Source: a virus
IMG/VR virus record: IMGVR_UViG_3300037420_001273
Strand: one strand, 5' to 3'
Length of the DNA: 64,000 nucleotides
Under the pieces are notes generated by a model. The model was given only the letters and a program-made list of their open reading frames with translations, did no database searches and was not told where the DNA came from. This document shows, piece by piece, positions 1,034-63,423 of the stretch. The position numbers were made by a program, and so were the translations under genes. The first letter of the stretch is position 1, and each line of letters opens with the position of its first letter.

Positions 1034-1043
1034 GTCTTTCCTT

Positions 1044-1469: not shown

Positions 1470-1472
1470 ATC

Positions 1473-1505
1473 GAAGTTAGATCGTACTACGAAGTTAGAA
1501 CGAAG
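1473..1505. promoter_or_regulatory. Dispersed motif instance (GTTAGATCG ... GTTAGAACG)
   Basis: gaagttagatcgtactacgaagttagaacgaag, abutting the start codon at 1469. Confidence 0.55.
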
Positions 1506-1526
1506 TGCAACGGAAAAACGAACGAT

Positions 1527-3959: not shown

Positions 3960-3964
3960 GCGAC

Positions 3965-6390: not shown

Positions 6391-6550
6391 CTGTGCGCAG
6401 CAGCCAGCGTGTGATCTCGGTGATCTTCTCTTCGCGTGTATGCTTGTTCAGCTCGGCAGTCCAGAACTGGATTCGTTCGTGCCTTTTCTCTGCCAAAGGA
6501 CTCAACTCATCCCACGTGGTGATCATCTCAATGCACAAACGGACGTTCAT
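6290..6550 (-). CDS. Hypothetical small protein (3-prime 100 nt overlaps helicase out of frame)
   Basis: 86-aa ORF whose start is ATGA-coupled to the upstream 55-aa ORF. The N-terminal two thirds have good third-position G/C. The tail, which overlaps the helicase gene, does not. Confidence 0.4.
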   Translation of the reverse strand: MNVRLCIEMITTWDELSPLAEKRHERIQFWTAELNKHTREEKITEITRWLLRTDVPPASREALRKHLHEISSNGAPEGEPQARQDD

Positions 6551-6714
6551 TCATGCTCCCGACAAGCCCAGTGCCCGCCGTTGATACGCACGCAGGCAAG
6601 AGACGCCGTGCGGCGCGCTTCAATCTTCTGAGACGGCCTGGTCTCGGTGATGCAGAGCAGCAGCACGAGGTAGCCGATGATCGCGATCACGCTGCCGGCA
6701 ACGAAGAGTTTCAT
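6547..6714 (-). CDS. Small membrane protein (55 aa, below ORF-track cutoff)
   Basis: Own translation: MKLFVAGSVIAIIGYLVLLLCITETRPSQKIEARRTASLACVRINGGHWACREHE. There are ATGA overlaps at both ends (6711-6714 and 6547-6550). Confidence 0.45.
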   Translation of the reverse strand: MKLFVAGSVIAIIGYLVLLLCITETRPSQKIEARRTASLACVRINGGHWACREHE

Positions 6715-6935
6715 GTCCTAAGCCTCTCGGTGACTTCTGCGGCGAGCACGCGCTGGCATGCTTTGCACGTCGGCGTCTTGCTGGCTTGTCTCGGGTTCAC
6801 AGGCATGTGTCGGTCGCTACCGCAGCTGCATTCACGACACACGGCTGTGAGCGTGCGCTTGCGGTTCGTCCACACCCAAGTGAGATGCGTCTTCACTTCC
6901 TCTGCACTCCGTCTTGACAGTGTCCAGAGCCCCAC
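6711..6935 (-). CDS. Small Cys-rich (zinc-ribbon-like) protein
   Basis: 74-aa ORF with paired Cys motifs (CRECSCG ... CKACQ). It overlaps the nuclease 3-prime end by 43 nt. Confidence 0.5.
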   Translation of the reverse strand: MGLWTLSRRSAEEVKTHLTWVWTNRKRTLTAVCRECSCGSDRHMPVNPRQASKTPTCKACQRVLAAEVTERLRT

Positions 6936-7600
6936 GGGCCGTAGCCGCAGTACTGGCAGCTGAACACGTTCGCGTTGGTCGGGAACTCCGTTGCCGTGGT
7001 GATCTGCATGCCGCGGCGGTGAAAGTTCGACTTGAAGCGCAGCGCCTGGTCGCGCGTGAAGACCTTCTTCGTCGTGTCGTTCTGGTCGAAGTACCAGAGC
7101 TCCGTCTCCACCACCTCGAGCTTCGGGTAGCGCAGCACGGCGTTGAGCGCGTACAGCGTCATCTGTTCACCGTGCTTGACCTCGTTGCCGAACTTGCGGC
7201 CGGTCTTGTAGTCGATGACCGTGGCGTAGGTGTCGTCCCAGAACACGGTGGCGTCGAGCTTGCAGCGGTGCCAGGCCGTCTTCCAGTCCGTCGGCTCCCA
7301 CTCGTGATCGACAGCCCACTCGCCTTCGCAAGACACCAGGCCCTCCGCGTAGAGCACGCGCAACAGGTCGAGCTCGGGACCGAAATGCTTGGATGCCTCG
7401 GGTGCAAGGAGGTCGCTCTCGCCCTTGACGTACAGCTCCGCGCTGGCGTGGATGCGGGTGCCACGGTCGTTCGCGTGTTCCGTCTTGCCGGGAGGCAGGG
7501 GACGGACCGGCTCAGGGATGCGCTGGTCGCGCATGAGCCAGACGCGGTGCTTGCACTTGTCCCACTCAGCGAGGATGGAGTGACTCCAGGACTTGAGCAT
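6893..7600 (-). CDS. PD-(D/E)XK nuclease, Cas4/RecB-like with Cys cluster
   Basis: Core ATVIDYKTGRK (D/ExK), QxxxY motif EQMTLYAL, one N-terminal Cys (KCKHR) plus C-terminal CQYCGYGPWGSGHC, as in Cas4-type Fe-S nucleases. Confidence 0.85.
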   Translation of the reverse strand: MLKSWSHSILAEWDKCKHRVWLMRDQRIPEPVRPLPPGKTEHANDRGTRIHASAELYVKGESDLLAPEASKHFGPELDLLRVLYAEGLVSCEGEWAVDHEWEPTDWKTAWHRCKLDATVFWDDTYATVIDYKTGRKFGNEVKHGEQMTLYALNAVLRYPKLEVVETELWYFDQNDTTKKVFTRDQALRFKSNFHRRGMQITTATEFPTNANVFSCQYCGYGPWGSGHCQDGVQRK

Positions 7601-7611
7601 GTTGGAGTGTC

Positions 7612-7640
7612 GTAGTTAGATCGAAACACGATCTTAGACC
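7612..7640. promoter_or_regulatory. Dispersed motif instance
   Basis: gtagttagatcgaaacacgatcttagacc, just upstream of the nuclease gene start (7600). Confidence 0.55.
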
Positions 7641-8284
7641 AAAACACCCTCGGATTCATAGAGGTGGCGAGCGACTGCGGGGATGCGCTGAACGAAGCGT
7701 TCTTCGGTCCAGCACCAGCGCCTTTCGGCGTACTTCATCGTGTTCGCGATGGAGCTGATGTCGTTGATCTCGAAAGCGTGGGCAAGGGTACTGTGCAAAC
7801 CCCAACTGCTGACCCAGTGTTCCTTGTCTGTTAACTTCGACGCCACATACGCAACCTTGAAGATCTCTGTGATCTTCGCGATCAGTGCCTTGCGCCTGGC
7901 GGAGTCGATCTTTTTCCGCACCGGCGGGTCGAGCACGATGATGCTTCCGGCGGCATCGATCAGCAGGCGGCTGGTTGTATCGAACCTAGCGCCTTTGATT
8001 TTGCTCAGCGTGAACACGGTGCCGCCAGTGATCGATCGCTTTTTGCGGTCGAACTGCAAACCGACGTAGCTGCCGACGCGTCTGTCCCAGACAGCACACT
8101 GTGCGTATTGCTTGAACGGCGGCGGAACCGTGACGATGATCTCGCCGTTGGGCTTCCACCGCAGCGTCTCGTGCTTGTCGTACAGCAGCAGGATGTCGTC
8201 GTTCTGCGCACGAACGAGACAAGTGCAGTAGCTGAGCGGGCAGCCGATTGGGCCGCAGCGAGAGGACGCGTTGTTGTAGTTCAT
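7634..8284 (-). CDS. Hypothetical protein
   Basis: The start was taken at MNYNNASS (ATG 8284), which is ATGA-coupled to the upstream 57-aa ORF. Length is 216 aa. Confidence 0.65.
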   Translation of the reverse strand: MNYNNASSRCGPIGCPLSYCTCLVRAQNDDILLLYDKHETLRWKPNGEIIVTVPPPFKQYAQCAVWDRRVGSYVGLQFDRKKRSITGGTVFTLSKIKGARFDTTSRLLIDAAGSIIVLDPPVRKKIDSARRKALIAKITEIFKVAYVASKLTDKEHWVSSWGLHSTLAHAFEINDISSIANTMKYAERRWCWTEERFVQRIPAVARHLYESEGVLV

Positions 8285-8454
8285 TTCTTCTTGCCGACCA
8301 GGTCGAAGCAACTCAAGAGCGCGAACAAGTTCAAGCCGAACCAAGCCGTTGTGATCGCAACGGCTTGGAACGAGACACCTGGGACTTCAAGCGAAGCGCC
8401 CCAGATGATTCCTGTCAGCACGAAGTTTGCGGCGAACGTGATGAGATAGAACAT
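8281..8454 (-). CDS. Small membrane protein (57 aa, below ORF-track cutoff)
   Basis: Own translation: MFYLITFAANFVLTGIIWGASLEVPGVSFQAVAITTAWFGLNLFALLSCFDLVGKKK. It has two hydrophobic helices and is ATGA-coupled downstream. Confidence 0.45.
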   Translation of the reverse strand: MFYLITFAANFVLTGIIWGASLEVPGVSFQAVAITTAWFGLNLFALLSCFDLVGKKK

Positions 8455-8456
8455 AG

Positions 8457-8843
8457 TCAGAGTCCCAAGTCCGCGAGGTATTCGGCGAAGAACAGGCGCG
8501 TCCAGTCGGCTAAAACGGGGTCTTCTCCGTCAGCTTCGAGAACCCAGTTGCTGCCGGCCATGTCCATGAAGAGCTCAACTTCTTCAGGTAGCTCGCCGCT
8601 GTCAGTGAAGAGAGCCATGTCGCGGAAGGCAGTGCTCACCGGGCCGTACTGAAGATGTTCGTCGTCGGGGTGGATACGCCACGAACCTTCGGGGCCGGGC
8701 AGCGCAAGGACGTCAAGAGGTATATCAACGTCGCGCCAACCATCGTCATTCTCTGTGCGCTCATGCATGTACCCTACCGCCACATAGTCACGCTGGATGC
8801 GTGCACCGCGCGCTGCGGCGAATTGCATTCGTTTGAGGTTCAT
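8457..8843 (-). CDS. Hypothetical acidic protein
   Basis: 128-aa ORF. It starts 2 nt after the stop of the VWA gene. Confidence 0.6.
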   Translation of the reverse strand: MNLKRMQFAAARGARIQRDYVAVGYMHERTENDDGWRDVDIPLDVLALPGPEGSWRIHPDDEHLQYGPVSTAFRDMALFTDSGELPEEVELFMDMAGSNWVLEADGEDPVLADWTRLFFAEYLADLGL

Positions 8844-8845
8844 CG

Positions 8846-9966
8846 TCAGAGCTCCAGACGGACCGTTTCACCCCACGGGCCTTGCGTGTCGGTAGTAGCG
8901 CACCAGAGCACCGGGAACTGCACCGGCGCGTCGGGGAACGCGCCGTACATGTCGGTCAGGTAGATGAGCGCCTTCGGCTCGATGCCGTGCTTTTCGAGCC
9001 AGCGGAACGGGGGGCGGAAGTCAGTGCCGCCACCACCATGCGGCTTGACGAAGAACTCGTCCTCGGGGAGGAACTCGTCGACGTGGTTCACCGCAGCGTC
9101 GCAGTACATCACGATCGTCTTGCGCGGACGCACCTTGCTGCGGATGTCTTCGATCTCGGTCGCGAACGCAGTCAGCGTGGCCTGGTCGATCGAGCCGGAG
9201 GTGTCGATGACGGTGACGAGCTCACCCATCGACTCACTGTACATGCCGGGCAGGATGAGGCCGTGCGCGAGCATGCGCCGGTTCGGACGCGACCAGCTGT
9301 AGTCGTCTTTCGTGCGCTCGGTGACGAAGCGACGCAGCACGGCGCGCCAGTCGACCTTGCTCGCGGTGAGCTCATCGACGAACCGCTGCAGCGACGCAGG
9401 CAGTTTGCCTGCAGACTTGGCTGCATGCGCGGCCTGCATGACAGCGTCACGCCACTCGTCCCGTTGCGCCTCGGCCTCGTCTTCGTCGCCGCTGCCGTCC
9501 AGGACGACGTCCTGGCCTCTGTCGCCCTCGAGTTGGTCGGGCAGCAGGTTGTAGATCTGGTCCGCGGTGAAGTTCTTCCACGCCGGGTTCGGCTGGACCC
9601 AGTGCTTACCGAGCTGGAAGCCGGCGTCGACGATCATGTCATTGACGACATAGTCGGCGGCGATGTTCCACTTCGCCGCATTGCGCGAGCCACGGCGCGT
9701 CATGTGATCGAATACGCAGTGGCCGACCTCGTGCGCGACGGCGCTGCGCAGCAACGGGATCTCGGTCTCCATGACGAACGTCTCGTCGTAGTAGATCGTG
9801 CTGCCGTCAACGGCGAGCGTCGGCTTCAGGCCGCGCGACTTGAACATCGCGTGCGCTTCGGGCGGCATCGGCGTGAGCTTCAACCGAAGCGCCAGGGCGC
9901 CGAAGAACGGTTGCTCGATGAGCAGCGTGGCTCGGGCCTTGACCAGGCGCTTCAAGACTTGTTCGT

Positions 9967-9970
<4 letters not shown>
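8846..9970 (-). CDS. Zincin-like metallopeptidase (HExxH) fused to von Willebrand factor A domain
   Basis: HEVGH lies in the N-terminal half. A MIDAS-like VTVIDTSGSID and GGGGTDF lie in the C-terminal half. This architecture matches the metallopeptidase-VWA partners of MoxR ATPases (DUF2201-like, from memory). Confidence 0.85.
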
Positions 9971-10274
<304 letters not shown>

Positions 10275-10278
<4 letters not shown>

Positions 10279-10514
10279 TTGCGCTGTCTGTAGGAACAGT
10301 TGATGATGAACAACACGGCTGCCGTGTTGAGCTTCACGGTGCCACACTTATCGAGAACGGTGCTCGATGTAGGACCGTTCAAAGCGATCTCGCCGAGACC
10401 CTTCGTAGTGCCCCAATTGCGGACGACGCTTGCCTTCTCGAGTGTCTGCGCGTCAGCTTGTAGCTCTCCAATGAGCACCCAGCCGTTCGTGAGCACCACG
10501 ATCTTCTCGTTCAT
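10275..10514 (-). CDS. Hypothetical small protein
   Basis: 79-aa ORF (IVVLTNGWVLIGEL ... NWGTTKGLGEIALNGP). It is ATGA-coupled at both ends. Confidence 0.6.
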
Positions 10515-35453: not shown

Positions 35454-36053
35454 GTGGCCACTCGCGAAGATCTGGTCATCGAGCAGGGTCGCACCTTCCA
35501 CACGGTCGTCCGCTGGGAGGTCGAGCCGCTGGTGTACCGGCCCATCACCGCGATCGCACAGAGTGCGCCGGCGCGCTTAACGGTGCCCGCGCACGGTGTC
35601 GTCGATGGCTGGCGCGTGGCCGTGGTCGACGCGAAGGGCATGACCGAGCTGAACGCCCGCAAGAACCCTCCAGCGCTGTCCGACTTCCACCGCGTGAACG
35701 CCGTCGACTCGAACACGCTCGACCTGCGCAGCGTGAGCTCAGCCAGCTTCAAGCCCTACCGCTCTGGCGGTTACATCGCGTACTACACACCGGCTGACCT
35801 GACCAGCTACACGGCGCGCATGACGATCAAGAACAAGATCGGCGGCACCGTGTACACGCAGCTCTCTACGACCGGCGGGACCATCGTGCTCGATCCGACC
35901 CTGCGCACGATCACGCTGTCGCTGACTGCTGAGACCACCGCCGCGCTGACCTTCACGAAGGGTGTTTACGACCTGGAGATGGTGTCGCCCACCGACGTCG
36001 TGACAGCGATCCTGTACGGCTCTGTTTCCTTGACCAAAGAGGTGACCACGTGA
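35454..36053 (+). CDS. Virion structural protein candidate
   Basis: 199 aa with a GTG start. It is beta-rich. Confidence 0.6.
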   Translation: MATREDLVIEQGRTFHTVVRWEVEPLVYRPITAIAQSAPARLTVPAHGVVDGWRVAVVDAKGMTELNARKNPPALSDFHRVNAVDSNTLDLRSVSSASFKPYRSGGYIAYYTPADLTSYTARMTIKNKIGGTVYTQLSTTGGTIVLDPTLRTITLSLTAETTAALTFTKGVYDLEMVSPTDVVTAILYGSVSLTKEVTT

Positions 36054-36256
36054 GCGACCTGATCTACACCACCAAAGGCGATTTGCCGATCGACTCGCTC
36101 GTCAAGACCGAGACCGTTGTCGACAACGACAACGAGTACACGGTCGCGACGGAATATCGGCTCAAAGACGACCCGACCGGCGAGGTGGTGCGCCGAGACG
36201 TTCACGTGACGCTGAAGCAGGGGCCCGTCCTGTTCGGCGAGCAAGCCACCCTCTGA
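36050..36256 (+). CDS. Hypothetical small protein
   Basis: 68 aa with GTGA coupling. Confidence 0.5.
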   Translation: MSDLIYTTKGDLPIDSLVKTETVVDNDNEYTVATEYRLKDDPTGEVVRRDVHVTLKQGPVLFGEQATL

Positions 36257-36266
36257 AGGAGCCACC

Positions 36267-36722
36267 ATGGCCAATTCTCAAGCTATCTGCACCTCCTTCA
36301 AGGGGGAAATCCTGTCGGGCGTTCATGCGCTCGGCACCACTGTCACGCGCGGCGGCACGACTGCTGACACGGTCAAAGCGGCGCTGTACCTGGCGACCGG
36401 CTCGATCGGCGCTGCCACCACGGCGTACTCGGCGACCAACGAGGTCTCGGGCACCAACTACACCGCCGGCGGCGTGACCGTCACCAACGGCACCGCGCCG
36501 TCGACCTCGGGTACCACGGCGATCTGGACGCCCAGTGCGTCGATCACGTACACGAACGTAACGCTGTCGACGTCGTTCGACTGCGTGCTGCTCTACAACA
36601 GCACCCAATCGAACAAGGCGATCGCCGCGTACATCTTCGGCGCGCAGACGATCACCGCCGGCACCCTGACGCTCACGATGCCCACGAACGACGCCTCGAA
36701 CGCGCTGCTCCGTATCGCGTAA
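36267..36722 (+). CDS. Virion structural protein candidate (about 150-aa family, copy 1)
   Basis: 151 aa with GGAG upstream. It shares size and pattern with the ORFs at 46026-46523 and 46559-47002. Confidence 0.65.
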   Translation: MANSQAICTSFKGEILSGVHALGTTVTRGGTTADTVKAALYLATGSIGAATTAYSATNEVSGTNYTAGGVTVTNGTAPSTSGTTAIWTPSASITYTNVTLSTSFDCVLLYNSTQSNKAIAAYIFGAQTITAGTLTLTMPTNDASNALLRIA

Positions 36723-36758: not shown

Positions 36759-37067
36759 ATGGCTACCAAACTGAGCGACAGCCAGTCCGTCAGCGCGACC
36801 GGCACGTCGAACATTGCTTTCGCAGCGGAGCCCCTCGGCGGCTTCACCGCGCAAGCTTCGCTGGGCACGGCCACGTCGGCGACCGTGAAGGTGCAGGTGC
36901 GCGTCAACTCGACCAACTGGGTCGATGCCGCCATCTTCAGCCTGAGCTCGGGTGGCACGACCACTGACCTGGTCAACGTCTGGCCTCCGTACAACCAAGC
37001 ACGCTGGAACGTGACCGCCGTCGCCGGCGGCACGCTGCTGCTCGACGCCGTCGGCGTGGGGGTCTGA
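36759..37067 (+). CDS. Hypothetical structural protein
   Basis: 102 aa with GAAGGAGG upstream. Confidence 0.6.
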   Translation: MATKLSDSQSVSATGTSNIAFAAEPLGGFTAQASLGTATSATVKVQVRVNSTNWVDAAIFSLSSGGTTTDLVNVWPPYNQARWNVTAVAGGTLLLDAVGVGV

Positions 37068-37068
37068 C

Positions 37069-37995
37069 ATGCCTGTTCAGAACTACCGCGTCACGTCCGG
37101 CGTGCCGATGCCTTGGGCCGAGATCGTCGGCGGCGGTGGACTGGATGTCACCGGCGTCACGTACAACACCAATGGCACCGTTGCCACGTATACCGCCAAC
37201 GGCCGCACGTGGACGTTGAGCTACCTGAGCGACGGTCGCCCCGACACCGAGACGTCTAGCGGCTTCACCCGTCAGTACACGTACGACGCTTCCGGCAACT
37301 TCACCGGCGTGTCGGGCGCCGGGGTCGCGACGAACCAGACCAACAGCGGCACCTTGGCGAACCGACCAAGCAGCGCACTCGCCGGCGACCGGTATTTCTG
37401 CACCGACGTCGGCCCGCACGGCGTGATGACCGAGTACAAGGCATCCGGCTACTGGGGCCCGGCTGGTACGCAGTTGTTGGAGTCCTTGCTCGGCACCACC
37501 TCGTCGCCGGTGTCGAACACGCTCACCAACGCGAATACCACGTCAACGTTGTTCAAGGCGCCAGATGGCACGACGCAGCTGATCCGTACGATCCCGGCGA
37601 ACCTGCTGACGCTCGGCAAGTCGCGCCTGCGCATCCACGTGCGCCCGAAGCGCACGCAGACCAGCGGCACGAACTCGATCACCGTCTACATGAAGCTCGG
37701 CACTGCCGGCACGACGTCCGACGGCAGCATCAGCAGTAACAGCGTAGGCGCAACCGACGGGATCTCGGCGCACCTGATGTACGACCTGATGCTGACCAAC
37801 CTGTCAGGCAAGGTCGAGTCGTACGGCAACCTGGGCCCCAACGCCACCGCCACGACCGCCGGCGAGATCTCGGGCACTATCACGTTCACGCCGGCGAACG
37901 CGTGGATCATCTCGATCGGAATCACCGGTGTGAACGCGGCCGACACCGGCACGACCATATACCTTACCGACGTCGCGGTCGAATGGTTGGCGTGA
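37069..37995 (+). CDS. Tail-associated protein candidate
   Basis: 308-aa ORF in the tail region. Confidence 0.65.
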   Translation: MPVQNYRVTSGVPMPWAEIVGGGGLDVTGVTYNTNGTVATYTANGRTWTLSYLSDGRPDTETSSGFTRQYTYDASGNFTGVSGAGVATNQTNSGTLANRPSSALAGDRYFCTDVGPHGVMTEYKASGYWGPAGTQLLESLLGTTSSPVSNTLTNANTTSTLFKAPDGTTQLIRTIPANLLTLGKSRLRIHVRPKRTQTSGTNSITVYMKLGTAGTTSDGSISSNSVGATDGISAHLMYDLMLTNLSGKVESYGNLGPNATATTAGEISGTITFTPANAWIISIGITGVNAADTGTTIYLTDVAVEWLA

Positions 37996-38007: not shown

Positions 38008-39663
38008 ATGTCCCTTCTGCCGATGTATCAATCGCGGTATCACAAGCCATCCACGACGGCGGCGATCTTTCGCGGCCCTCGTGTAGCGGCGATTGACTAC
38101 ACCGCGACTGTCGACACGGTGCGCCGTGACCTGACGGCGAAGTTCGACATCGTCCTGCGCAACGGCAGCAGCATCGCGAGCAACTTCACCTCGCTGGGCG
38201 CCTACACCGCCTTCATCCAGGGCGTGAAGGCGATCAACCCGACGATCAAGTGGCTGAACTACGTCATCGTCAACCAGTGGAACACGTCGAACGGTGCGTG
38301 GAGCGCGCTGGCGAACGATCTCAACGCGACGGGCGGTAAGGGCGGCCTTGATGGGAAGCCTTGGTGGGTTTTCGACGCCGGCACGAGCACGCAGCTTTTG
38401 CTCGACGGCTCGCCGATGGTCAACCTCACCACGGCGGTCGCCGCCGACTCGAATGGCGACCGCTGGCCCCAGGTGTGCGGCAAGTGGTGGATCAACACGA
38501 TGTATTCGGGCGCGCTGGGCGCGGCCCTGGGCATGGACGGCGTGTGGACCGATAACACGTTCTACGCCCCGCGCAAGAGCAACGACGCGAATCTGAAGAT
38601 CGGCGACATCAACCTTGACGGTGTCAACGAAACAATCGGCGGTGATGGCCGCGCGTCGAGCTCCACCATCCGAGCCGCCTACCGCACCGGTGTCCAGGCG
38701 TTCTGGACGCAGATGTCATCGCTGCACTCCGGGCTGAAGATCGGCGGCAACAGCGATTACGACGCGAGCGCGCAGAAGGCGTCGGTCGACACCACCGAAC
38801 TCACCGGCCGCTGCGACTATCCCTTCCTGGAGTCGTGCACCGGCAAGAGCTTCTCGACTGAGAACAGCGCCGGCTTCAGCGGCTGGATGACCTGGTACGC
38901 GTCGGCCGAGAACGGCTGCAAGGCCGGCGGTAGCGTGTGGGTGCATGCCTCGGCGGATTCGGTGACCAACGCCAGCCGCGCCTATCGGATCGCGCGCTAC
39001 ATCCTCGCAGTCGCGCACTTGCGTAACGGCTACGCGTGCGTGGCCGACAATCCGAGCGGCGGCTCCAACCAGCCCATCTGGTACAGCGATTTCGACCCGC
39101 TTGTCGCGAACATCGGCACGGCCGTCGATCCGGTGCAGACCGCGGCTTGGTCGAGCAACGTGTGGCGCCGGCGTTATCAGAACGGCGCCGTCTTCGTGGT
39201 CCCGACGGACACCCATGGCGGCTACTTCCGCCTCGGTGGCCTGTCGCTGATCCGCACCGCCAACGTAGTCACGCTTTCCGGCTCTGGGCTGACGGGGCAC
39301 GGCGCCGTGGCCGGCGACCTCATCCGCTGGGAGATGGACGGCGTCACGCCAGCTGACGGCAGCTTCAAGGGCTGCTTCGCGATCACCGCCGTCACGGCGA
39401 CCTCGATCTCATGGGCACAGACAGGCGCCGCCGACACCTCTTCGCTGACGGGCGTCGAGATGGGCTGGTGGGCGCTGCAGACGACGATCGACCTGACTGG
39501 TCAGGGCTATAAGCGCATCCTCACCACGAGCGACGCGCACAACAACTACGACGGCACGCTCGTCAGCGGCTCGGCGCCGGTCTATACGTCGCAGAACGAC
39601 GGCACAGCCTGCGGCCTGGTCAAGTTGTGGGCCGGCGACGGACTAGTGGTGGTAGCAGCATGA
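38008..39663 (+). CDS. Tail enzyme candidate, glycoside-hydrolase-like
   Basis: 551 aa. The pattern around DGVWTDN, GWMTWY and neighbouring aromatic or acidic residues resembles TIM-barrel glycosidase-like families (weak, from memory). Confidence 0.6.
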   Translation: MSLLPMYQSRYHKPSTTAAIFRGPRVAAIDYTATVDTVRRDLTAKFDIVLRNGSSIASNFTSLGAYTAFIQGVKAINPTIKWLNYVIVNQWNTSNGAWSALANDLNATGGKGGLDGKPWWVFDAGTSTQLLLDGSPMVNLTTAVAADSNGDRWPQVCGKWWINTMYSGALGAALGMDGVWTDNTFYAPRKSNDANLKIGDINLDGVNETIGGDGRASSSTIRAAYRTGVQAFWTQMSSLHSGLKIGGNSDYDASAQKASVDTTELTGRCDYPFLESCTGKSFSTENSAGFSGWMTWYASAENGCKAGGSVWVHASADSVTNASRAYRIARYILAVAHLRNGYACVADNPSGGSNQPIWYSDFDPLVANIGTAVDPVQTAAWSSNVWRRRYQNGAVFVVPTDTHGGYFRLGGLSLIRTANVVTLSGSGLTGHGAVAGDLIRWEMDGVTPADGSFKGCFAITAVTATSISWAQTGAADTSSLTGVEMGWWALQTTIDLTGQGYKRILTTSDAHNNYDGTLVSGSAPVYTSQNDGTACGLVKLWAGDGLVVVAA

Positions 39664-40135
39664 GCCCCGCAGCCAGCAGCATCCATTGCTCCGGCTCCGG
39701 CACTGAGGAGACGACGACGTGAACCTCAGCCGGCGTGGTCGTCCACCACACTTCGGAGTTGGGCCCGCCGTCCATCGAGGCGATGTTCAAGCCCATCCAC
39801 AGACTCAGCCCTTCCTCGGGGCTGGTGAACGCCATGAAATCGAGCAGCTGATTGGTTGCAACGCGGTAGTCCAAGCGCGCCACAACGCTGGCCTGCGTGT
39901 TGCCGAAGACCGGCATCCACGAGGCGGCATGCAGGCATTCGTTTGGAGTTACGACGCCGTCGCCGTTCATGTCGTCGACCGTCAGCAAGGCTTGCAGCGC
40001 GAACGGCTTGATCATCCACGAGATGTTCTGCGGCAGTTCGTTGTCGAGTCCGCTGACAGTGATCGACAAGTCGAAGGGCTGAGCGTGGGCGCAACAGATC
40101 CCCGCGGCGAGCACCGTCCCGACGAGCAGCTTCAT
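39620..40135 (-). CDS. Secreted PEP-CTERM protein (moron, opposite strand)
   Basis: Signal peptide MKLLVGTVLAAGICCAHA-QP. EF-hand/dockerin-like DDMNGDGVVTPNE. C-terminal VPEPEQWMLLAAGLMLLPPLVRRR, which is PEP plus a TM helix plus an Arg cluster. Third positions are strongly G/C and GGAGA lies upstream. Confidence 0.8.
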   Translation of the reverse strand: MKLLVGTVLAAGICCAHAQPFDLSITVSGLDNELPQNISWMIKPFALQALLTVDDMNGDGVVTPNECLHAASWMPVFGNTQASVVARLDYRVATNQLLDFMAFTSPEEGLSLWMGLNIASMDGGPNSEVWWTTTPAEVHVVVSSVPEPEQWMLLAAGLMLLPPLVRRRPTT

Positions 40136-40213
40136 GTCCGTCTCCGTTGTTATGCCCGAGACGATACGCAGCAGACGCTGTACCTGAATCCCACGAATGA
40201 GGGATGACGCCCC

Positions 40214-41397: not shown

Positions 41398-43692
41398 GTG
41401 CTGCTGTTCCATCAGAACCTGCTGAACGGCAATCGCTACGTGAATCATCACGTGGCGGGCACGTGGCTGCCCGGACTGCGCGAACGCGCGCAGATCATGT
41501 TCTTCAGCGCGAACCAGGCGAGCGCGGCGCTCACTGGGTCGAGCGCCACTACGACCGCCGGAACTGCTGCGCCCACGATCTCAGTCGCGCTTACCGGTAC
41601 GACGGCCTCCACTGGCCAGGGCTCGTTCCCGCTCGTCTATGGCATCGGTACCCGTGTGGTCAATCCGCACGTGGCCGGGCGCTGGGTACCTGATGTCGCG
41701 GAGCGCGCGAAGCTGCTCCTGTTCTCGGCCACCCTGAGCAACGTTGCGCTCGCTGGCTCGAGTGCTACCGCCTCCGCGGGGTCCGCCACGGCGGCAATCA
41801 GCACGGCTCTGACTGGCGTCGGTGCAACCTCAGCAGTCGGCGCGATCACGTCGTCGTCGACTGTCGCCCTGACCGGCTCCGCGTCGACGGCCTCCGCGGG
41901 CACGATGGCGCCGACGCACACGGCTGCGCTGTCCGGGAGCGCCGCCACTGGCGCCCAAGGCAGCGTGTCGGCCAGCGGCAGCGGCTCAGCCTCGCTCAGC
42001 GGCTCGGCTGCTACGGCCTCCACCGGTACGCCGGCGGTGACGCACACCGTGGCCCTGACGGGCGCTTCAGCCACGTCTGCGCAAGGCTCCGTCATCCCCG
42101 GGCTGCAGCTCACCGGTGCCCAGGCAACCGGCGCTGCGGGCACGCTCGGCGTCGCCGCTGCGATCCCGCTCACCGGCGCCTCGAACACTGCTGCGGCGGG
42201 CGCGCTGTCCGCCGGCGTGACGCTCGCGCTGAACGGGCAGGGCGCCGTGATCGCTCAGGGCCAGTTCTCGGCGGTGTTCGATGCCTATGGCGCACGGGCG
42301 GTCAACCGCCACGTTGCGGGCACCTGGTCGCCGGTGATGCACCAGCGAGCCGTGGTGATGATGACCGGCGGCTCCCTGGTCGGTCAGCAGGCGAGTGCAG
42401 CCGCCGGGGCGATGACGACTTCGCGCACGATCGCGCTCACCGGCGCCGCCGCTACGGCGCAGGCTGGGGCGCTCTCGGCGAACCAACCTGCCGGCGTCAA
42501 CCCAACCGTCACCGGCTGGTGGACCGGCGCTGTCGTCAAGCGTTTCTCGTTGCTGGCGCCCGGCATCGAGCTGATCGGTGTGTCGGCCGCGGCGTCCACC
42601 GGTGTTCTCTCGCCTGTGCGCAGCATCGCGCTCACCGGCTCGATTGCCACGGCCGCAGCTGGTTCGCTCGCCGCGACGATCCGCGTGGCGCCGAGCGGTT
42701 TGTCCGCTACGGGCGCACAGGGTTCTGTTGGGCCGGCTCAGCCTCTGGTCGGCAGCAGCCTGACTGGCGCCACAGGTACGCTGAACCTCGTCAACTCGCC
42801 TGCGCTGAGCAACGCGCTCGCCAGCACCTCCGCCGGCAACCTCGGCGAGCTGGTGTCTGCATTCGCGCTCACCGGTGGCTCTGCTACGTCGCTCACCGGT
42901 ACTGCCGCGCCGGCTATCACGATCGCGCTCACCGGCGCCGCCGCTACGGCCGCCGGCGGTACGCTGTCTGCATCCAAATCCCTCAACGGCGCTGCCGCCA
43001 CGGCTGCGGCCGGCACGCTCGGCGTGACGACCAGCATCGCGCTGACCGGCTCGGCTGCTGCGGGCGCGCAGGGCTCGGTTGGTACGAGCTTCGCCGGCAA
43101 CGTGAGCCTGACCGGCTCTGCTGCGACGGCCGCGGCTGGCGTTCCTGGCGTCTCAGTCACGATCGCGCTGTCTGGCGCCGGTGCAGCCGCCGCGGTGGGC
43201 TCCGTCGGCCAGTCGCGCGCTGTCAGCACCAGCGGCGCGGCGGCCTCGAGCGTCGCAGGCAGCGTCGCTGCGGTCATCGCGAAGGCGCTCGCCGGCGCGC
43301 AGGCTGCGATGCAGGCCGGTGCCGTCAATATCCAGGGCGACTCCACGATCGCGCTCACTGGTACCGGCGCAGCGGCTGCGCAAGGGTCTCTCAGCTCGAG
43401 CTTCGCGGTCGGCGTTACCGGCGCGCAACTGGTCGCGGCGCAGGGCGCTGTCGACAAGGTGCTCGGCGCCGCGCTGTACGGCGCGTCCTTGAGCGCTCAG
43501 GCGGGTACCTTCATCGTCACCGGCGGCGTCATCGGCAGCGACGGCGGCGTGACCTCGCCCATCTACGCCCGCACGTTCATTGACCAGCGCACCGCCCAGA
43601 CGTTTATCGACGATCGCTTCGCTCACACCACAGACGGCGATACGAGTGCATCGACGTCTGACTCTGACATCGCTGCTTACACCCGGGAGTGA
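41398..43692 (+). CDS. Ala/Gly/Ser/Thr-rich repeat fibre-like protein
   Basis: 764 aa with a GTG start. It contains about 28 copies of a roughly 20-aa ALTG-x-x-AT-x-x-x-G unit, punctuated by four VN-x-HVAG-x-W-x-P ... RA units. Confidence 0.7.
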   Translation: MLLFHQNLLNGNRYVNHHVAGTWLPGLRERAQIMFFSANQASAALTGSSATTTAGTAAPTISVALTGTTASTGQGSFPLVYGIGTRVVNPHVAGRWVPDVAERAKLLLFSATLSNVALAGSSATASAGSATAAISTALTGVGATSAVGAITSSSTVALTGSASTASAGTMAPTHTAALSGSAATGAQGSVSASGSGSASLSGSAATASTGTPAVTHTVALTGASATSAQGSVIPGLQLTGAQATGAAGTLGVAAAIPLTGASNTAAAGALSAGVTLALNGQGAVIAQGQFSAVFDAYGARAVNRHVAGTWSPVMHQRAVVMMTGGSLVGQQASAAAGAMTTSRTIALTGAAATAQAGALSANQPAGVNPTVTGWWTGAVVKRFSLLAPGIELIGVSAAASTGVLSPVRSIALTGSIATAAAGSLAATIRVAPSGLSATGAQGSVGPAQPLVGSSLTGATGTLNLVNSPALSNALASTSAGNLGELVSAFALTGGSATSLTGTAAPAITIALTGAAATAAGGTLSASKSLNGAAATAAAGTLGVTTSIALTGSAAAGAQGSVGTSFAGNVSLTGSAATAAAGVPGVSVTIALSGAGAAAAVGSVGQSRAVSTSGAAASSVAGSVAAVIAKALAGAQAAMQAGAVNIQGDSTIALTGTGAAAAQGSLSSSFAVGVTGAQLVAAQGAVDKVLGAALYGASLSAQAGTFIVTGGVIGSDGGVTSPIYARTFIDQRTAQTFIDDRFAHTTDGDTSASTSDSDIAAYTRE

Positions 43693-44150
43693 CCATGCAG
43701 TTGAGCCCCCACTTCTCTCTGGCCGAATTCACGGTGACGCAGCACCGCGAGATCGACAACACGCTACCGCCGGACCTGTATAACGAGGCCCGTCGCACCT
43801 GCCAGCTGCTCGAGCGCGTGCGCGACTTCCTGTCGAACAAGCTCGGGCGCGAGGTGCCGCTCACGCTGTCCAGCGGCTATCGCTGTCTCGAGCTCAACCG
43901 CGCCGTGGGCTCGGCGGACTCGAGCGACCACATCAAGGCGATGGCCGCCGACATGGTCGCGCCGGTGTTCGGCACGCCGCTGAAGATCGCGAGCACGCTC
44001 GCGCCCTACGTCGATCAGCTCGGAGTGGGGCAGCTGATTCACGAGTACGGCCGCTGGGTCCACCTGTCGACCCGCACGCCGGACAAGACGCTGAACCGGA
44101 TCATCACGATCAGCGGTGCGGGGACGTTCGTAGGAGTGCTGCCTTGCTGA
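43689..44150 (+). CDS. Endolysin, Peptidase_M15 (VanY-like zinc peptidase) family
   Basis: SGYRCLELNRAVGSADSSDHIKAMAADM plus WVHLS supply the H-x6-D ... H zinc ligands. A GTG at 43689 overlaps the upstream stop, and an ATG lies at 43695. Confidence 0.85.
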   Translation: MTMQLSPHFSLAEFTVTQHREIDNTLPPDLYNEARRTCQLLERVRDFLSNKLGREVPLTLSSGYRCLELNRAVGSADSSDHIKAMAADMVAPVFGTPLKIASTLAPYVDQLGVGQLIHEYGRWVHLSTRTPDKTLNRIITISGAGTFVGVLPC

Positions 44151-51850: not shown

Positions 51851-52873
51851 ATGTCCAGCTTCCCGCTGCCTGACCCGCCCAGCACTGTTGCCTACGCGGT
51901 CACTGCCGCGAGCCGCATCTTCAACGGCTTGTGGGAGACCGCGCAGGAGAAGTCCGTCAAGTTCGACGCGCGCCTGGATGACACAACGGCGAACGTCCCG
52001 GCGTCGATGGCGCTGGCGCCGGCGCCCGTGATCTCCGGCTTCACCACTCCGACGTTGCCGACGCCGCCCACGAGCATGAACGCCTCTGACCTCGAGGCGC
52101 TTTACAACAACAATGTGAGCGCGCTGGAAGAGCTGCTGGTCAGCTCTTACTCGGACTACCTGGCTACTTACTTCCCAGCTGGGACGTACTTGTCGCAGGC
52201 TCAGTCGTGGATCGAAAACGTGCTGAGCACCGGCGGCACTGGCGTGAATCCGACCGTCGAGGCGCAGCTGTGGGAGCGAGATCGCGCGCGTGTGCTGCAA
52301 GAAGCCGCCCGCATGGAGGAGGAGCTGCTGACGACCTGGGCTGGTCGGCGCTTCCCGCTGCCGCCTGGCGCACTCACGTATCAGGTCCTGCAAGTCCGCA
52401 AAGACTCCTCGGACAAGATCGCCGAGAGCTCGCGCAACACGGCGATCAAGGTCTACGAGATTCAGGTAGAGCAAGCGCGTTTTGCCGTTCAGCAGGCGCT
52501 TGCGCTGCGACAGCAGGCCGTGCAGGCGGCAGGGGAATACATGCGCAATCTGGCGTTGGCGCCGCAGATCGGCGCGACGCTCGCCGCAGCTCTCGCTGAT
52601 GCGCAGGCTCGCCTGGCCAGCGTGACGACGGAGTACTACAAGGCACTGATCGCTGCGCAGGAGATCCCTCTGCGCGTAGCGACCACGAACGCCGAGCTGG
52701 CGGTGCGCGTCGAAGAGCTGCGCGGCCGGCTGGATGTGGATCTGATCGACAAGCGCGTTCAGGCAGCGATCGGCGCGGCTCAGATGTACAGCACGCAGGC
52801 GGCGGCGGCCTTCAACGCGCTGCACAGCCAGGCTGCCATCAGCTCGAGCGACAGCGTGAGCACTTCGCTCTAA
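51851..52873 (+). CDS. Virion internal protein candidate
   Basis: 340 aa, helical and Ala/Gln-rich. Confidence 0.65.
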   Translation: MSSFPLPDPPSTVAYAVTAASRIFNGLWETAQEKSVKFDARLDDTTANVPASMALAPAPVISGFTTPTLPTPPTSMNASDLEALYNNNVSALEELLVSSYSDYLATYFPAGTYLSQAQSWIENVLSTGGTGVNPTVEAQLWERDRARVLQEAARMEEELLTTWAGRRFPLPPGALTYQVLQVRKDSSDKIAESSRNTAIKVYEIQVEQARFAVQQALALRQQAVQAAGEYMRNLALAPQIGATLAAALADAQARLASVTTEYYKALIAAQEIPLRVATTNAELAVRVEELRGRLDVDLIDKRVQAAIGAAQMYSTQAAAAFNALHSQAAISSSDSVSTSL

Positions 52874-53058
52874 CGGAAGAAGAACTGACCGATGCCGACG
52901 AACAACCCGATTGCTGTTGCGACGGCGAAGATCGCCCAGAGCAGCCACTGCGCCCAGCGCCGCGGCTGCTCAAGGTACCAGTTCTTGTTGTCCAGCAGCG
53001 ACTGGATCTCCTGGATAGGTTGAGGCGTCAGCTCTTCGACCACGTTCTTGAGTTTCAT
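52870..53058 (-). CDS. Small C-tail-anchored membrane protein on opposite strand
   Basis: The start was taken at MKLKNVVEEL (ATG 53058). It has a C-terminal TM helix, WLLWAIFAVATAIGLFVGIGQFFF. It is convergent with the upstream plus-strand gene, with a 4-nt overlap. Confidence 0.45.
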   Translation of the reverse strand: MKLKNVVEELTPQPIQEIQSLLDNKNWYLEQPRRWAQWLLWAIFAVATAIGLFVGIGQFFFR

Positions 53059-53085
53059 GGCCGGGCTTCTAGCACACGCCTGCAA

Positions 53086-53112
53086 ATCGTACAATCTAAG
53101 TTAGATCGAAGG
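53086..53112. promoter_or_regulatory. Dispersed motif instance merged with ribosome-binding site
   Basis: atcgtacaatctaagttagatcgaagg, continuing agtcccg to the ATG at 53120. Confidence 0.55.
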
Positions 53113-53119
53113 AGTCCCG

Positions 53120-54889
53120 ATGGCCAGTCTGCGAATCCCCGTTGGCGAGGCAACCGAGATCAACCCGGAGCGCATCAACGTCGGCCCTGACGGCCGCGCC
53201 ATCCCCTCGATGGAGCCGAAGCCGCTCGGCGCCCGCGGCCCGCAGTTCAACCGCACGATGGTCGGCTCCACGCCGGCGCCTACCGCGCCCGCACAGGTGG
53301 CCACGACTCCAGCGGCGGCTCAATCCCTGCGTACCCGCGTGGCCACGGGCGTCGGCCGCACCGTCGGCTCGGCCGCGCGCGTCGCGCTTTCGCCCGCCGC
53401 GCTTCTCGGCGCTGCTGCGACCAGCGGCTACGGCACGTACCACATCAACGATCCCGAGATCGACTCGTCGGCCGGCGGGACGCTGAACTACATCAAGAAC
53501 GGCGAGGGCGGCAAACTCCTTCGCTCGCTCTCCAACGGCGCCCTCGAGACCGGCCTGGACCTGGCGCACGGCGGCGCCGGCATGATCGACTCGATCGCCG
53601 GCACGCACCTGCAGCAGAGCCTGCGCGATCGCGTCCAGTCCGACCTCGGTGACCAGATCCGCATCGGCCAGCCCGCCGCGGCTGCTGCCGTCGCACCGGC
53701 GTCGCCTGCGGGCAGTGCGAACCCGGCTCAGGAGAACTTCCGCGCGGCGGAGCTGGCTGGCGCCAGCCCCAGCGCCCCGTTGCAGACGCAGGAGGCGAAC
53801 TACCAGAGCCCGGCGCTGCGCAATGTCAGCACGATCCCTGGCACCAGCACGGCGGACACGCTGCGACAGATCGACACGATCCGCGGCTTGGGCGGCAATC
53901 CGATGGACCCGTACGGCTCCGGCGCTCACGGTCCCGACGGCTCCGGCGGGCTGGCCAGCATCGGCTCTGGCGGCTCGATCTCGAGCGACGCACATGCCAA
54001 GTTCGATCAATTCGCGCAGCGCGAAACCCTGCGTGGTCAGATCCGCGATGCGCTGTCGAGCCGCAATCCGCACGACCGCGCAGCGGCGATGCAGCTCGCC
54101 GGCCAGGCCGAAGGAATCGCCGGTAACGAGCGCGTGGCGGGGCTTCGCGAAGCCGGTGAAAACGCGCGCGCCTCGGCCCAGCTCGGCTTGTCGCGCTACC
54201 TCGGCGACCGCAACGCCCAGCTGCAACTGCGTGGGCAGGACATCACGCGCGAGGGCCACATGATCAACGCTGCCGGCCAGCGCGCGCAGCTGCTCTACAA
54301 CATCAACAAAGACCAGCGCGACTTCAACCTGCGCAAGGACGAGGTCGACAACGCCGAGCGCGAGCGCGGCCAGAAGAGCATCAGCGACTGGTTGCAGTCG
54401 TCGTTCCAGACGACCGACGCGAACGGCAAGGCGGTGCCCGACAGCGCGCGCATCGCTTCGTTCACCCAGGCGTCCACCCGCATGCTGGGCAACGTCATCA
54501 ACCAGTTCAAGAACGACCCGGACCCGGCCAAGCGGGCCTACGCCGAGAAACTGTCGAAGCAGGGCCTGCAAGCGCTCGACCCCGAGGACCGCGCCGCGAT
54601 GCTCACGCTGTTCGGCCGCATGGAGCGCTTCCAGCAAGCGCGCAGCGGCATCGTGCCGGGCACCGCCAGCGGGGCGGTCTCAGGCAGCCTGAATGACTAC
54701 GAGATCGTCGGCCACGAGCCCGGGCTGCTGCAGGACCGCTACCGCCTGCGCGGCGGCCAGTCGATCCCGGTCAATGACGTGCGCTACCGCGAGGGCCCGG
54801 CGAACCTGGTCCTGCCTGACGTCGGGAAGACCCCGACCACTGACCTCGGTCCGACCCCGCAGGAGCGCGAGCGCCTGCGCCAGCGATAA
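53120..54889 (+). CDS. Virion internal / ejection protein candidate
   Basis: 589 aa. The motif plus GAAGGAG lies upstream. Confidence 0.72.
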   Translation: MASLRIPVGEATEINPERINVGPDGRAIPSMEPKPLGARGPQFNRTMVGSTPAPTAPAQVATTPAAAQSLRTRVATGVGRTVGSAARVALSPAALLGAAATSGYGTYHINDPEIDSSAGGTLNYIKNGEGGKLLRSLSNGALETGLDLAHGGAGMIDSIAGTHLQQSLRDRVQSDLGDQIRIGQPAAAAAVAPASPAGSANPAQENFRAAELAGASPSAPLQTQEANYQSPALRNVSTIPGTSTADTLRQIDTIRGLGGNPMDPYGSGAHGPDGSGGLASIGSGGSISSDAHAKFDQFAQRETLRGQIRDALSSRNPHDRAAAMQLAGQAEGIAGNERVAGLREAGENARASAQLGLSRYLGDRNAQLQLRGQDITREGHMINAAGQRAQLLYNINKDQRDFNLRKDEVDNAERERGQKSISDWLQSSFQTTDANGKAVPDSARIASFTQASTRMLGNVINQFKNDPDPAKRAYAEKLSKQGLQALDPEDRAAMLTLFGRMERFQQARSGIVPGTASGAVSGSLNDYEIVGHEPGLLQDRYRLRGGQSIPVNDVRYREGPANLVLPDVGKTPTTDLGPTPQERERLRQR

Positions 54890-62286: not shown

Positions 62287-63423
62287 GTGGCTGGTGTACG
62301 CAAGATCAAGAAGACCGGGAAGTGGGAGGTGGCGGTGCGCCACAAGGACCTGCCAAACGGCCGCAAGTTCTTCACGTTCGACGACGAGGCCGCAGCGCGT
62401 GAATATGCGCGTCAGTGGGACGGCCTCGTCGAGCGCGGCGCGGCGCTGCCTTCGGAACTTCTCGAGCACACGCCGGCGCACCTGAAGACGCCGCTGGCCG
62501 TCGCGATCCGCGAGTGGCTGAACACCGGCAGACCATCGACGTCGGACCAGGAGCTGCTCGCGCTGCTCGTGCATGAGGTCGGCGCCGTGACGTTCGCTGA
62601 GTTCAAGTACGCGTGGGTCGAGCGTTGGATCGAAGCGATGAAGCTGCGACGCAACTTCGCGCCCGGCACGATCCGCAAGCGCGTCGGCGCTCTGTCGCGC
62701 GCGATCGACGCGTACCTTCGCAAGCACGAGCTCGAGCTGCAGAACCCGCTCAAGCTGCTGCCAGACCGGTACTCGGTCTACAACGACGTCGACGCGGAGA
62801 AAGTTCAGGCCGTTGGCTTGAAGGTCAAGCGCGACGAGGTTCGGCAGCGCCGGCTGGAGCCGGGCGAAGAGCAGCGCATCATGGCGCAGCTCAAGGACCG
62901 GCCGCACCTGCGGTTGCTGTTCCTGGTGATCCTGCACACCGGCGCGCGCTTGAAGGAAGCGTACACGCTCATGCGCAAGCAGATCGACTTGAAGGCGAAG
63001 GTGATCCGCTTCAAGAAGAGCAAGCAGTGGTATGGGAAGGTGGCGTTCAAGGACGTGCCGATCAAGCCGGAGCTCTACGTGGTGCTCGAAGCGCATATGC
63101 GCGAGCACCCGGGGCTGCCGACGGCTGATCTGTTCCCGTGGTTGGAGCACTACGGGGATGAGCGCGCCGTGTCGGCGCACCTGAGCGAGCAGTTCGCTCG
63201 TGTGTTTGAAGCAGCTGGCTGCGAGGGCCTGAAAGAACACGACCTGAGGCACGAGGCCACGTGCCGTTGGTATGAGTTGCGCGGCGCTAACGGCACCTGG
63301 TTGCTACACGACAAGGAGATCCACCGCATCATGGGCTGGAGCGAGAAGTCGACGATGTCGCAGCTCTACGCCTCGTTCCGCGGCGAGGACCTAGCAGCCA
63401 GGCTCTGGGGTACTGGAGCGTAA
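62287..63423 (+). CDS. int: Tyrosine recombinase / phage integrase
   Basis: 378 aa with a GTG start. Catalytic signature: HTGARLKEA (Arg), HDLRHEATCRW (H-x-x-R), MSQLYASFR (Tyr). It lies adjacent to the tRNA-derived att core. Confidence 0.92.
   Translation: MAGVRKIKKTGKWEVAVRHKDLPNGRKFFTFDDEAAAREYARQWDGLVERGAALPSELLEHTPAHLKTPLAVAIREWLNTGRPSTSDQELLALLVHEVGAVTFAEFKYAWVERWIEAMKLRRNFAPGTIRKRVGALSRAIDAYLRKHELELQNPLKLLPDRYSVYNDVDAEKVQAVGLKVKRDEVRQRRLEPGEEQRIMAQLKDRPHLRLLFLVILHTGARLKEAYTLMRKQIDLKAKVIRFKKSKQWYGKVAFKDVPIKPELYVVLEAHMREHPGLPTADLFPWLEHYGDERAVSAHLSEQFARVFEAAGCEGLKEHDLRHEATCRWYELRGANGTWLLHDKEIHRIMGWSEKSTMSQLYASFRGEDLAARLWGTGA

Follow-up and report, generated by a model that had tools for sequence, protein, structure and literature searches.

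The 64,000-nucleotide viral sequence analysed here (IMG/VR record IMGVR_UViG_3300037420_001273; "the window" below means this whole stretch) carries on its minus strand, at 39620..40135, a 171-residue gene that faces the rightward late operon of a phage. Sequence comparisons establish it as a conserved, selected gene for a predicted exported protein of the PEP-CTERM type, and at least two unrelated phages carry it within the same cassette. An exhaustive phmmer search returned three full-length relatives, aligned from residues 2-7 to 160-169: P0002 (164 aa, 40-43% identity to the window protein), which is encoded on a second viral contig (L003); P0003 (168 aa, 36%); and P0009 (187 aa, 34%), from Pseudoduganella lutea, which NCBI names a PEP-CTERM sorting domain-containing protein. 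With a profile search the family grew to about 28 proteins, most of them with a precomputed match to PF07589, and P. plicata and P. lurida contributed further members. One layout runs through an alignment of 22 sequences: a signal peptide, a loop of the form D-x-[DN]-x-D-[GN]-x-[VI]-x-x-x-E, a beta-rich body, and a tail with VPEP, a glycine and an arginine pair. A neighbour-joining tree groups P0002 and P0003 with the window protein in a single clade, from which the chromosomal members are separate; the three proteins are 34-41% identical and keep all the motifs.

The chromosomal members lie in non-phage contexts and adjoin other PEP-CTERM genes; one Pseudoduganella locus (L012) holds three PEP-CTERM open reading frames (ORFs) inside 2.5 kb. 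Cultured phages yielded no protein match to the 171-aa gene, PHROGs yielded 0 families, and a scan of the genome collection with the family profile gave no matches. As a separate observation, at 523-10308 of a Pseudoduganella plicata-type contig (L013; JBHMDQ010000016.1) the gene for P0028, a further chromosomal member of the family, stands directly upstream of a block of TerL, portal and ClpP-protease genes, with two further PEP-CTERM genes interleaved and a transposase fragment close by. This region is possibly a prophage remnant enriched in PEP-CTERM genes.

The gene and the architecture of its product

The ORF at 39620..40135 is a real gene, as judged from codon bias, the gap that it fills and its homologues. 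It was found as the first-pass annotation had described it, with an ATG start, 171 codons and the quoted N- and C-terminal sequences, and the 44-nt convergent overlap with a 551-aa plus-strand gene was seen as well (Table 1). Length is no proof of its reality, because 112 ORFs of at least 150 aa occur over the six frames of the window, where GC content is 63.5%. That abundance of long chance ORFs is the argument for regarding it as a spurious frame in a GC-rich non-coding gap, a reading to which we give next to no likelihood. GC content by codon position (0.61/0.45/0.81) follows a coding pattern, as in the neighbouring genes, and the competing ORFs in the gap are non-coding by the same pattern, with GC at third positions (GC3) of 0.58 for 39719..40207(+) and 0.45 for 39726..40094(-). 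Were the gene not there, a 550-nt hole would be left in an operon that is tightly packed. The synteny is conserved, and homologues with an identical three-part architecture in bacteria and in another phage refute the spurious-frame reading. The GC3 of the gene (0.81) falls within the phage's own span of 0.79-0.95, slightly under the 0.87-0.91 of the adjoining genes. The annotation's description of third-position G/C as host-like is unsupported.

We take Met1 as the true start, because homology begins at residues 2-7 and a GGAG lies just upstream. The equivalent site on L003 is GAGGAG, and Met56 of the window gene has no comparable site. A database version of the same protein (P0001, 116 aa) begins at Met56, a shorter call that is an artefact, since its 3.9-kb source contig ends within the gene. 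A word-indexed search with the 171-aa protein returned this truncated self copy only.

The annotation had also called this the sole sizeable minus-strand gene of the late operon. This agrees with a GC3-filtered ORF map of about 23.7-61.9 kb, in which other minus-strand ORFs with high GC3 lie inside plus-strand genes. The exception is a small ORF at 52870-53094(-), of 62-74 aa, which lies in the gap between 51851-52873(+) and 53120-54889(+). Read from Met13 it encodes 62 aa, has a GC3 of 0.80 and ends in a hydrophobic helix, WAQWLLWAIFAVATAIGLFVGIGQFFFR; its product matches no Pfam family and no PHROG.

The 171-aa protein has only two hydrophobic segments, at residues 1-18 and 150-165. The first looks like the Sec-type signal peptide that had been proposed: A-H-A before Q-P obeys the -3/-1 rule, and A-x-A followed by x-P is kept in the family. 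No lipobox was found in the protein or in its family alignment. An AlphaFold (AF2) model built with the family alignment (pLDDT 76) consists of a beta domain flanked by two terminal helices, one of which spans residues 3-11, within the signal peptide. In Foldseek searches of the model against PDB and BFVD, nothing was found at E<1e-3 (TM <=0.31), and the passenger domain matches no family-specific NCBIfam model.

Within this domain, residues 55-66 (DMNGDGVVTPNE) match the 12-residue EF-hand loop pattern D-x-N-x-D-G-x-V-x-x-x-E. In the 22-sequence alignment D55 and E66 never vary and G58 and D59 hardly do, and phmmer matches EF-hand repeat proteins over this stretch. Calcium loops of the DxDxDG type occur outside EF-hands (the Rigden and Galperin type), and the loop resembles these in that the 12-residue pattern given above is present in all family members. 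It differs from EF-hands and dockerins in that it occurs once and in predicted beta surroundings, where the AF2 model places beta strands rather than a paired helix-loop-helix around it. The label "EF-hand/dockerin-like" thus holds for the conserved loop pattern but not for a dockerin, given the single loop and the lack of any Pfam EF-hand or dockerin match at E<=10. The segment is best called an EF-hand-like DxDxDG loop, that is, a putative calcium loop.

The C-terminus had been read as a PEP-CTERM sorting signal. Its order is V145-P-E-P, the hydrophobic stretch 150-165 and R166-R-R, which ends 3 residues from the end of the protein; VPEP, G157 and the arginine pair are invariant or nearly so among the 22 homologues. 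The layout and the homologues support the reading, but this copy misses the curated cut-off: PF07589 gives 14.2 bits against 20.7, and TIGR02595 is unlisted even at E<=10. Matches to the C-terminal stretch came from 10 NCBIfam PEP-CTERM families; they start at residues 119-145 and end at 161-168, and all of them fall under the full-length cut-offs (best match NF038129, E 3.8e-7). TIGR02595, whose cut-off is 16 bits, is passed by P0002, P0003 and P0009, at 21.6, 23.7 and 28.2 bits respectively. We also built a tail hidden Markov model (HMM) of our own from 95 unrelated PEP-CTERM tails out of metagenomic and viral loci. The window protein scores 26.6 bits with it, where the queries that retrieved the training tails included the window tail; the runner-up of about 430 ORFs in the window scores 5.7, and family members score 16-41.

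Two features largely account for the lower curated score, E-Q-W and a Pro-Pro in the tail helix. This Pro-Pro, encoded by cca cca, stands antisense to Val-Val (GTG GTG) in the overlapping 551-aa gene. Because the curated cut-offs are missed, membership rests on the homologues and on our own tail model, and we class the product as PEP-CTERM-type by homology and architecture, at a score below the curated threshold.

The shared cassette and its phages

The contig that encodes P0002 (L003; IMG/VR 3300037420_001736) measures 95.5 kb at 68% GC and is myovirus-like, given its tail sheath, different major head protein and prohead protease. It has just one block in common with the window, apart from a weak likeness between Ala-rich proteins of 764 aa and 771 aa. 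Across this block, named by the lengths of the products in the window, identities are 37% (68 aa), 81% (151 aa), 74% (102 aa), 45% (308 aa), 45% (551 aa) and 40% (171 aa). In either phage, no other gene of the block shares the strand of the PEP-CTERM gene, which has a divergent spacer of 78-82 nt on one side and a convergent overlap with the 551-aa gene on the other. On L003 this overlap is also exactly 44 nt (10404-10447), and in both the stop codon of the PEP-CTERM gene sits antisense to the same V-K codons. The arrangement on the short contig that encodes P0003 is similar: the divergent spacer there measures 88 nt and the convergent overlap 53 nt.

The insert that the two phages specifically share is narrower than this block. 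The 151-aa gene (36267-36722 +, phrog_644) has at least 590 IMG/VR relatives at about 61-80% identity, from many environments. Among 80 fetched loci that carry it, the 68-aa gene is present in 64 and a relative of the Ala-rich 764-aa protein in 48, and the 102-, 308-, 551- and 171-aa genes in none. The specific shared insert is therefore taken to be these last four genes, since all 80 loci lack them. A definition of the cassette through the 81% identity of the 151-aa gene was discarded, as that gene occurs at about 61-80% in hundreds of viral contigs. The idea that the PEP-CTERM gene is a lineage-wide feature was rejected too, other genes occupying the slot in related prophages; in 96 related loci (1.06 Mb) no PEP-CTERM-tailed ORF was found.

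The annotation had spoken of a moron. The gene is indeed a genuine opposite-strand accessory gene in a phage, but it is not solitary: it closes a four-gene cassette common to an unrelated phage. Set against the features of a moron, it is missing in the 96 related loci and stands in a phage with an integrase; it has no sigma-70 promoter, shows no compositional anomaly and belongs to a cassette.

Its convergent partner is the 551-aa gene. That the product is a glycosidase comes down to a single Pfam match, to GHL15, which the L003 orthologue passes with 37.2 bits and the window copy narrowly misses (Table 1). The 551-aa protein has no PHROG match and no PDB sequence match, and its AF2 model, made from a two-sequence alignment, has a pLDDT of 28. 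As an observation on this partner, GHL15-like genes occur in three backbones: a KPP25-like podophage (the window, 38008-39663), the myovirus-like contig (L003 10404-12074) and a P22-like phage (L015 5968-7608; L029 8001-9635). All three backbones stem from sibling JGI samples (33000374xx), an indication of horizontal exchange between phages that share one host community. In the P22-like phages (L015, L029 and L030), a GHL15-like gene of 74% identity lies between terminase and portal, and it has no PEP-CTERM partner.

Table 1. Positions of the PEP-CTERM-type gene, its parts and the features around it
Feature	Position	Strand	Basis or remark
Coding sequence, 171 aa, predicted secreted PEP-CTERM-type protein	39620..40135	-	ATG at 40135 (Met1); codon-position GC; homologues
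Predicted signal peptide, residues 1-18 (MKLLVGTVLAAGICCAHA, then QP)	40082..40135	-	Hydrophobicity; family conservation
EF-hand-type putative calcium loop, residues 55-66, D-M-N-G-D-G-V-V-T-P-N-E	39938..39973	-	Pattern; conservation
PEP-CTERM-type tail, residues 145-168: VPEP, helix EQWMLLAAGLMLLPPLV, RRR	39632..39703	-	Models; conservation
Shine-Dalgarno sequence GGAG	40142..40145	-	6 nt before ATG at 40135
Sigma-54-like -24/-12 element AGGTACAGCGTCTGCT, GG-N10-GC	40170..40185	-	Ends 34 nt before ATG; lead only
Convergent overlap, 44 nt	39620..39663	both	Last 14 codons and stop of the minus-strand gene; last 13 codons and stop of the 551-aa gene
GHL15-like putative glycoside hydrolase, 551 aa	38008..39663	+	Pfam GHL15, 25.4 bits against a 27-bit cut-off
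102-aa and 308-aa genes, upstream cassette members	36759..37995	+	Similar to L003, order kept
68-aa and 151-aa genes, left flank of a widely conserved fibre-type module	36050..36722	+	
Tyrosine integrase	62287-63423	+	

The phage that carries the cassette in the window looks temperate and of Burkholderiales-type bacteria. Its rightward late region encodes TerL, a P22-type portal, a major head protein, the head-closure protein Hc3, virion proteins and an 1824-aa internal virion protein; an M15 endolysin (43689-44150) and the integrase are also rightward, and the DNA polymerase, primase, helicase and nuclease genes lie in a leftward region. The phage's closest relatives in culture are Pseudomonas phages KPP25 and phiR18 (Kochitakasuvirus), at 48% identity in the portal, and no nucleotide similarity to cultured phages was found. 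Portal relatives of 53-72% identity sit inside Herminiimonas, Janthinobacterium, Verminephrobacter, Polaromonas and Caldimonas contigs, some of them hundreds of kb long; Oxalobacteraceae and Comamonadaceae are among the families with such related prophages. It is these relatives within bacterial contigs, together with the integrase, that point to a temperate Burkholderiales lineage. The window has no tRNA and no terminal redundancy, and Rfam gave nothing significant over 37-43 kb.

In phiR18, gp76 is the sole minus-strand coding sequence annotated in the late region, at an equivalent spot. We set it aside as a precedent (L001 14123-14938; NC_041964.1 50122-50937): it begins with Leu, has a low-complexity, antisense-looking translation and is probably spurious. 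A further observation concerns the Ala-rich 764-aa protein of the window (41398-43692 +), which is rich in Ala, Gly, Thr and Ser, has LTG(S/A)xATxxxG-type repeats in a region with a local GC content of about 70%, and matches no Pfam family and no PHROG.

Expression signals

No sigma-70 promoter and no convincing terminator were found for the 171-aa gene; terminator-like hairpins number one, a weak one, against 0.7 expected by chance. The top-scoring site of the 78-nt divergent intergenic region under a simple -24/-12 matrix is AGGTACAGCGTCTGCT, and its counterpart on L003, GGGAATGACACTTGCT, ends 30 nt before the ATG there. Equally good sigma-54-like sites occur at 3.8e-4 per position, or about 0.03 expected per 80-nt upstream region, with a matrix and a threshold that were picked post hoc.

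In Proteobacteria, the cis-unit of PEP-CTERM genes consists of an activator motif ending in TTTACA, a spacer of 32-92 nt and a sigma-54 -24/-12 site, and it is present at only 99 of 167 proteobacterial PEP-CTERM genes (PMC1569441). The PEP-CTERM genes of Zoogloea depend on RpoN and PrsR (PMC9012009). No activator motif of this PrsR type, ending in TTTACA, lies within range upstream of the 171-aa gene. The chromosomal homologues, for their part, have an upstream motif of their own, TGACT(A/G)(T/G)(C/T)AA(A/G)TTGCAAT, with sigma-54-like spacing and GA for GG at -24. Its sites lie about 62 nt upstream of 10001 on L012, upstream of 4128 on L013 and upstream of 3741 on L014, and it is absent from the phage copies.

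If the gene were a captured host PEP-CTERM gene of no use to the phage, a neutral passenger with a degenerating sorting tail, then the Pro-Pro and the tail scores below the curated thresholds would be expected, as would the want of a clear promoter, a GC3 a little under that of the adjoining genes and the absence of the gene from one GHL15-carrying phage type. We think such decay improbable, however. The frame is intact across copies that have diverged to 34-41% identity, and the signal peptide, calcium loop, VPEP, glycine and arginine cluster are all kept. Both phages have a good Shine-Dalgarno sequence, and the window tail scores well on our own tail model.

Proposed role and comparison with known systems

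On balance we favour the view that this is a functional accessory gene set against the late operon, and that its product is a small protein of the envelope or matrix, which makes use of the host's Sec and exosortase systems; we hold this to be reasonably probable. The preprotein would be exported by Sec and cut after A-H-A, and the C-terminal helix would then hold the protein in the inner membrane with RRR in the cytoplasm. In a host with an exosortase of the XrtA/EpsH type, VPEP would be recognised and the anchor removed, so that the domain of about 125 residues, with its calcium loop and beta structure, could reach the cell surface or the exopolysaccharide (EPS) layer. These export, anchoring and exosortase steps follow the model of Haft et al. 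(PMC1569441). The gene probably originated in the chromosomal PEP-CTERM family of Oxalobacteraceae-type bacteria and has probably resided for long in phages as the last cassette gene in a fibre-type module.

Opposite orientation keeps the gene off the late transcript, which means that it can be expressed separately, most plausibly in lysogens; we infer such expression apart from the late operon from the orientation and the integrase. The most likely consequence would be an altered host surface or EPS, i.e., conversion, and the phage probably alters the surface of its host in this way. As the gene is linked to one for an enzyme that putatively cuts EPS or glycans, the polymer affected may be the one that this enzyme attacks.

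Several observations weigh against this functional reading. The window protein itself lies under the curated PEP-CTERM cut-offs (PF07589 and TIGR02595), and the Pro-Pro that the overlapping gene imposes on its tail could interfere with anchoring or with recognition. Since its passenger domain has no structural relative in the Foldseek searches of PDB and BFVD, any biochemical activity is a guess. The gene has neither a sigma-70 promoter nor a convincing terminator, and the sigma-54-like element is weak, post hoc and unaccompanied by an upstream activator motif. Finally, the GHL15-like gene and the 171-aa gene are not obligatorily linked, because the P22-like type has the former alone.

The protein is in several ways like the exosortase substrates described by Haft et al. 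2006 (PMC1569441), which generally have a signal peptide, form single-gene units and are associated with sigma-54 sites. It has a signal peptide, a poorly conserved passenger and an end made of VPEP, a helix and arginines; it too forms a single-gene unit, and its close relatives pass both TIGR02595 and PF07589. Its family occurs in Betaproteobacteria (Pseudoduganella), and Janthinobacterium, of the same bacterial family, is reported to have an exosortase: XrtA, PrsK/PrsR and exosortase B have been described in Janthinobacterium genomes (PMC9860564). Unlike the known substrates, it is encoded by a phage, within a cassette among structural genes and behind an upstream region of 78 nt rather than more than 200 nt; it also lacks the PrsR-type upstream motif, and its tail scores under the curated cut-offs. 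Among characterised substrates, PepA of Zoogloea resiniphila fixes EPS to cells (PMC9012009).

A more specific version of the functional reading, and one that does not exclude it, is that the exported protein masks a receptor or EPS, as superinfection exclusion tied to the enzyme for host recognition: it would coat the polymer or receptor of the GHL15-like protein and block adsorption of the same and related phages, on infected or lysogenic cells and on debris. In two unrelated backbones, and probably in a third, the 171-aa gene abuts and overlaps the GHL15-like gene, and the pair behaves as a unit, with the stop codon in the same place, antisense to conserved V-K-L-W codons. By analogy, T5, BF23 and other siphophages pair a receptor-binding gene with a small exported receptor blocker in an exchangeable module (PMC9586334, PMC4728585). 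We nevertheless regard masking as unlikely. The P22-like phages have the GHL15-like gene and no partner for it, and a receptor-binding or virion role of the 551-aa protein is not supported, given its lack of a PHROG match and the AF2 pLDDT of 28. The known blockers, moreover, are lipoproteins, and the 171-aa protein has no lipobox.

The likeness to Llp of T5, Llp of BF23 and Cor is thus one of arrangement, a small gene for an exported protein beside a gene of host-recognition type, with the pair mobile as a unit (PMC9586334, PMC4728585). Those proteins are lipoproteins and bind transporters of the outer membrane from the periplasmic side, whereas the 171-aa protein lacks a lipobox, ends in a PEP-CTERM-type tail and resembles them neither in sequence nor in fold.

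Taken further, the two genes could form a pair for attack and shielding, in which the enzyme penetrates EPS and a calcium-binding protein grafted by exosortase makes lysogens or infected cells refractory to phages with the same enzyme; the RpoN/PrsR regulon of the host would perhaps be recruited through the sigma-54-like site. This is speculative, and we rate it as quite unlikely. If it held, phages would have a new route to superinfection exclusion, and this protein would be the first exosortase substrate from a phage to have a defined role.

A role in the phage cycle itself, as a unimolecular spanin-like lysis protein or as a periplasmic assembly or chaperone factor for the fibre or glycosidase, seems highly improbable to us. 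U-spanins of the T1 gp11 type combine an N-terminal lipoprotein signal with a C-terminal transmembrane helix and are encoded in the lysis cassette. The N-terminal export signal, beta-rich body and C-terminal helix of the 171-aa protein recall this arrangement, and its gene is located among structural genes, with the M15 endolysin 3.5 kb downstream. It differs from T1 gp11, however, in the absence of a lipobox, in its 3.5-kb distance from the endolysin and in its strand, which is opposite to that of the late and lysis genes. Its cellular homologues, furthermore, are found in non-phage chromosomal settings beside other PEP-CTERM genes, and the invariant VPEP indicates recognition by exosortase rather than membrane fusion.

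The preferred reading, that of an accessory envelope or matrix protein, also invites comparison with lambda lom and bor, the classical late-region morons and conversion genes. Like these, the 171-aa gene is an accessory gene for an envelope protein among the structural genes of a temperate phage, missing in relatives. Unlike them, it lies on the opposite strand, overlaps its neighbour, shows no compositional anomaly and belongs to a multi-gene cassette, and its product is predicted to be sorted by exosortase rather than by Lol or Bam.

To our knowledge, the characterised conversion and exclusion proteins of phages are lipoproteins, outer-membrane proteins or inner-membrane proteins, and full-text literature searches found no description of phage-encoded PEP-CTERM proteins. 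The 171-aa protein would thus be a phage accessory envelope protein whose sorting route had not been linked to phages before. With one back-translated pattern ([SPA]VPEPx[TS][WYI][AMV][ML]), at least 185 tails of the PEP-CTERM or PEPxxWA type came up on IMG/VR contigs, and going by these, phage-borne cases may be wider than this one. As to the surroundings of such tails, several of the IMG/VR tail loci (L031-L110) have tandem pairs or abut large opposite-strand ORFs (e.g., L081, L082, L090 and L107). Ten large neighbour ORFs, some of them maybe spurious, gave no phage-hallmark PHROG match and only unrelated Pfam matches.

The attachment targets of exosortases and most functions of PEP-CTERM proteins are little understood, and the main experimental handle has been floc formation in Zoogloea and Aquincola. 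The protein described here may offer a tractable model: the substrate is small, has a putative calcium loop and comes with a natural partner gene for a putative glycan hydrolase. It also leads us to predict a host from a Burkholderiales-type lineage that bears an exosortase and forms EPS or flocs. A phage-borne protein of the PEP-CTERM type, under selection in at least two unrelated backbones, would mean that phages exploit this sorting pathway.

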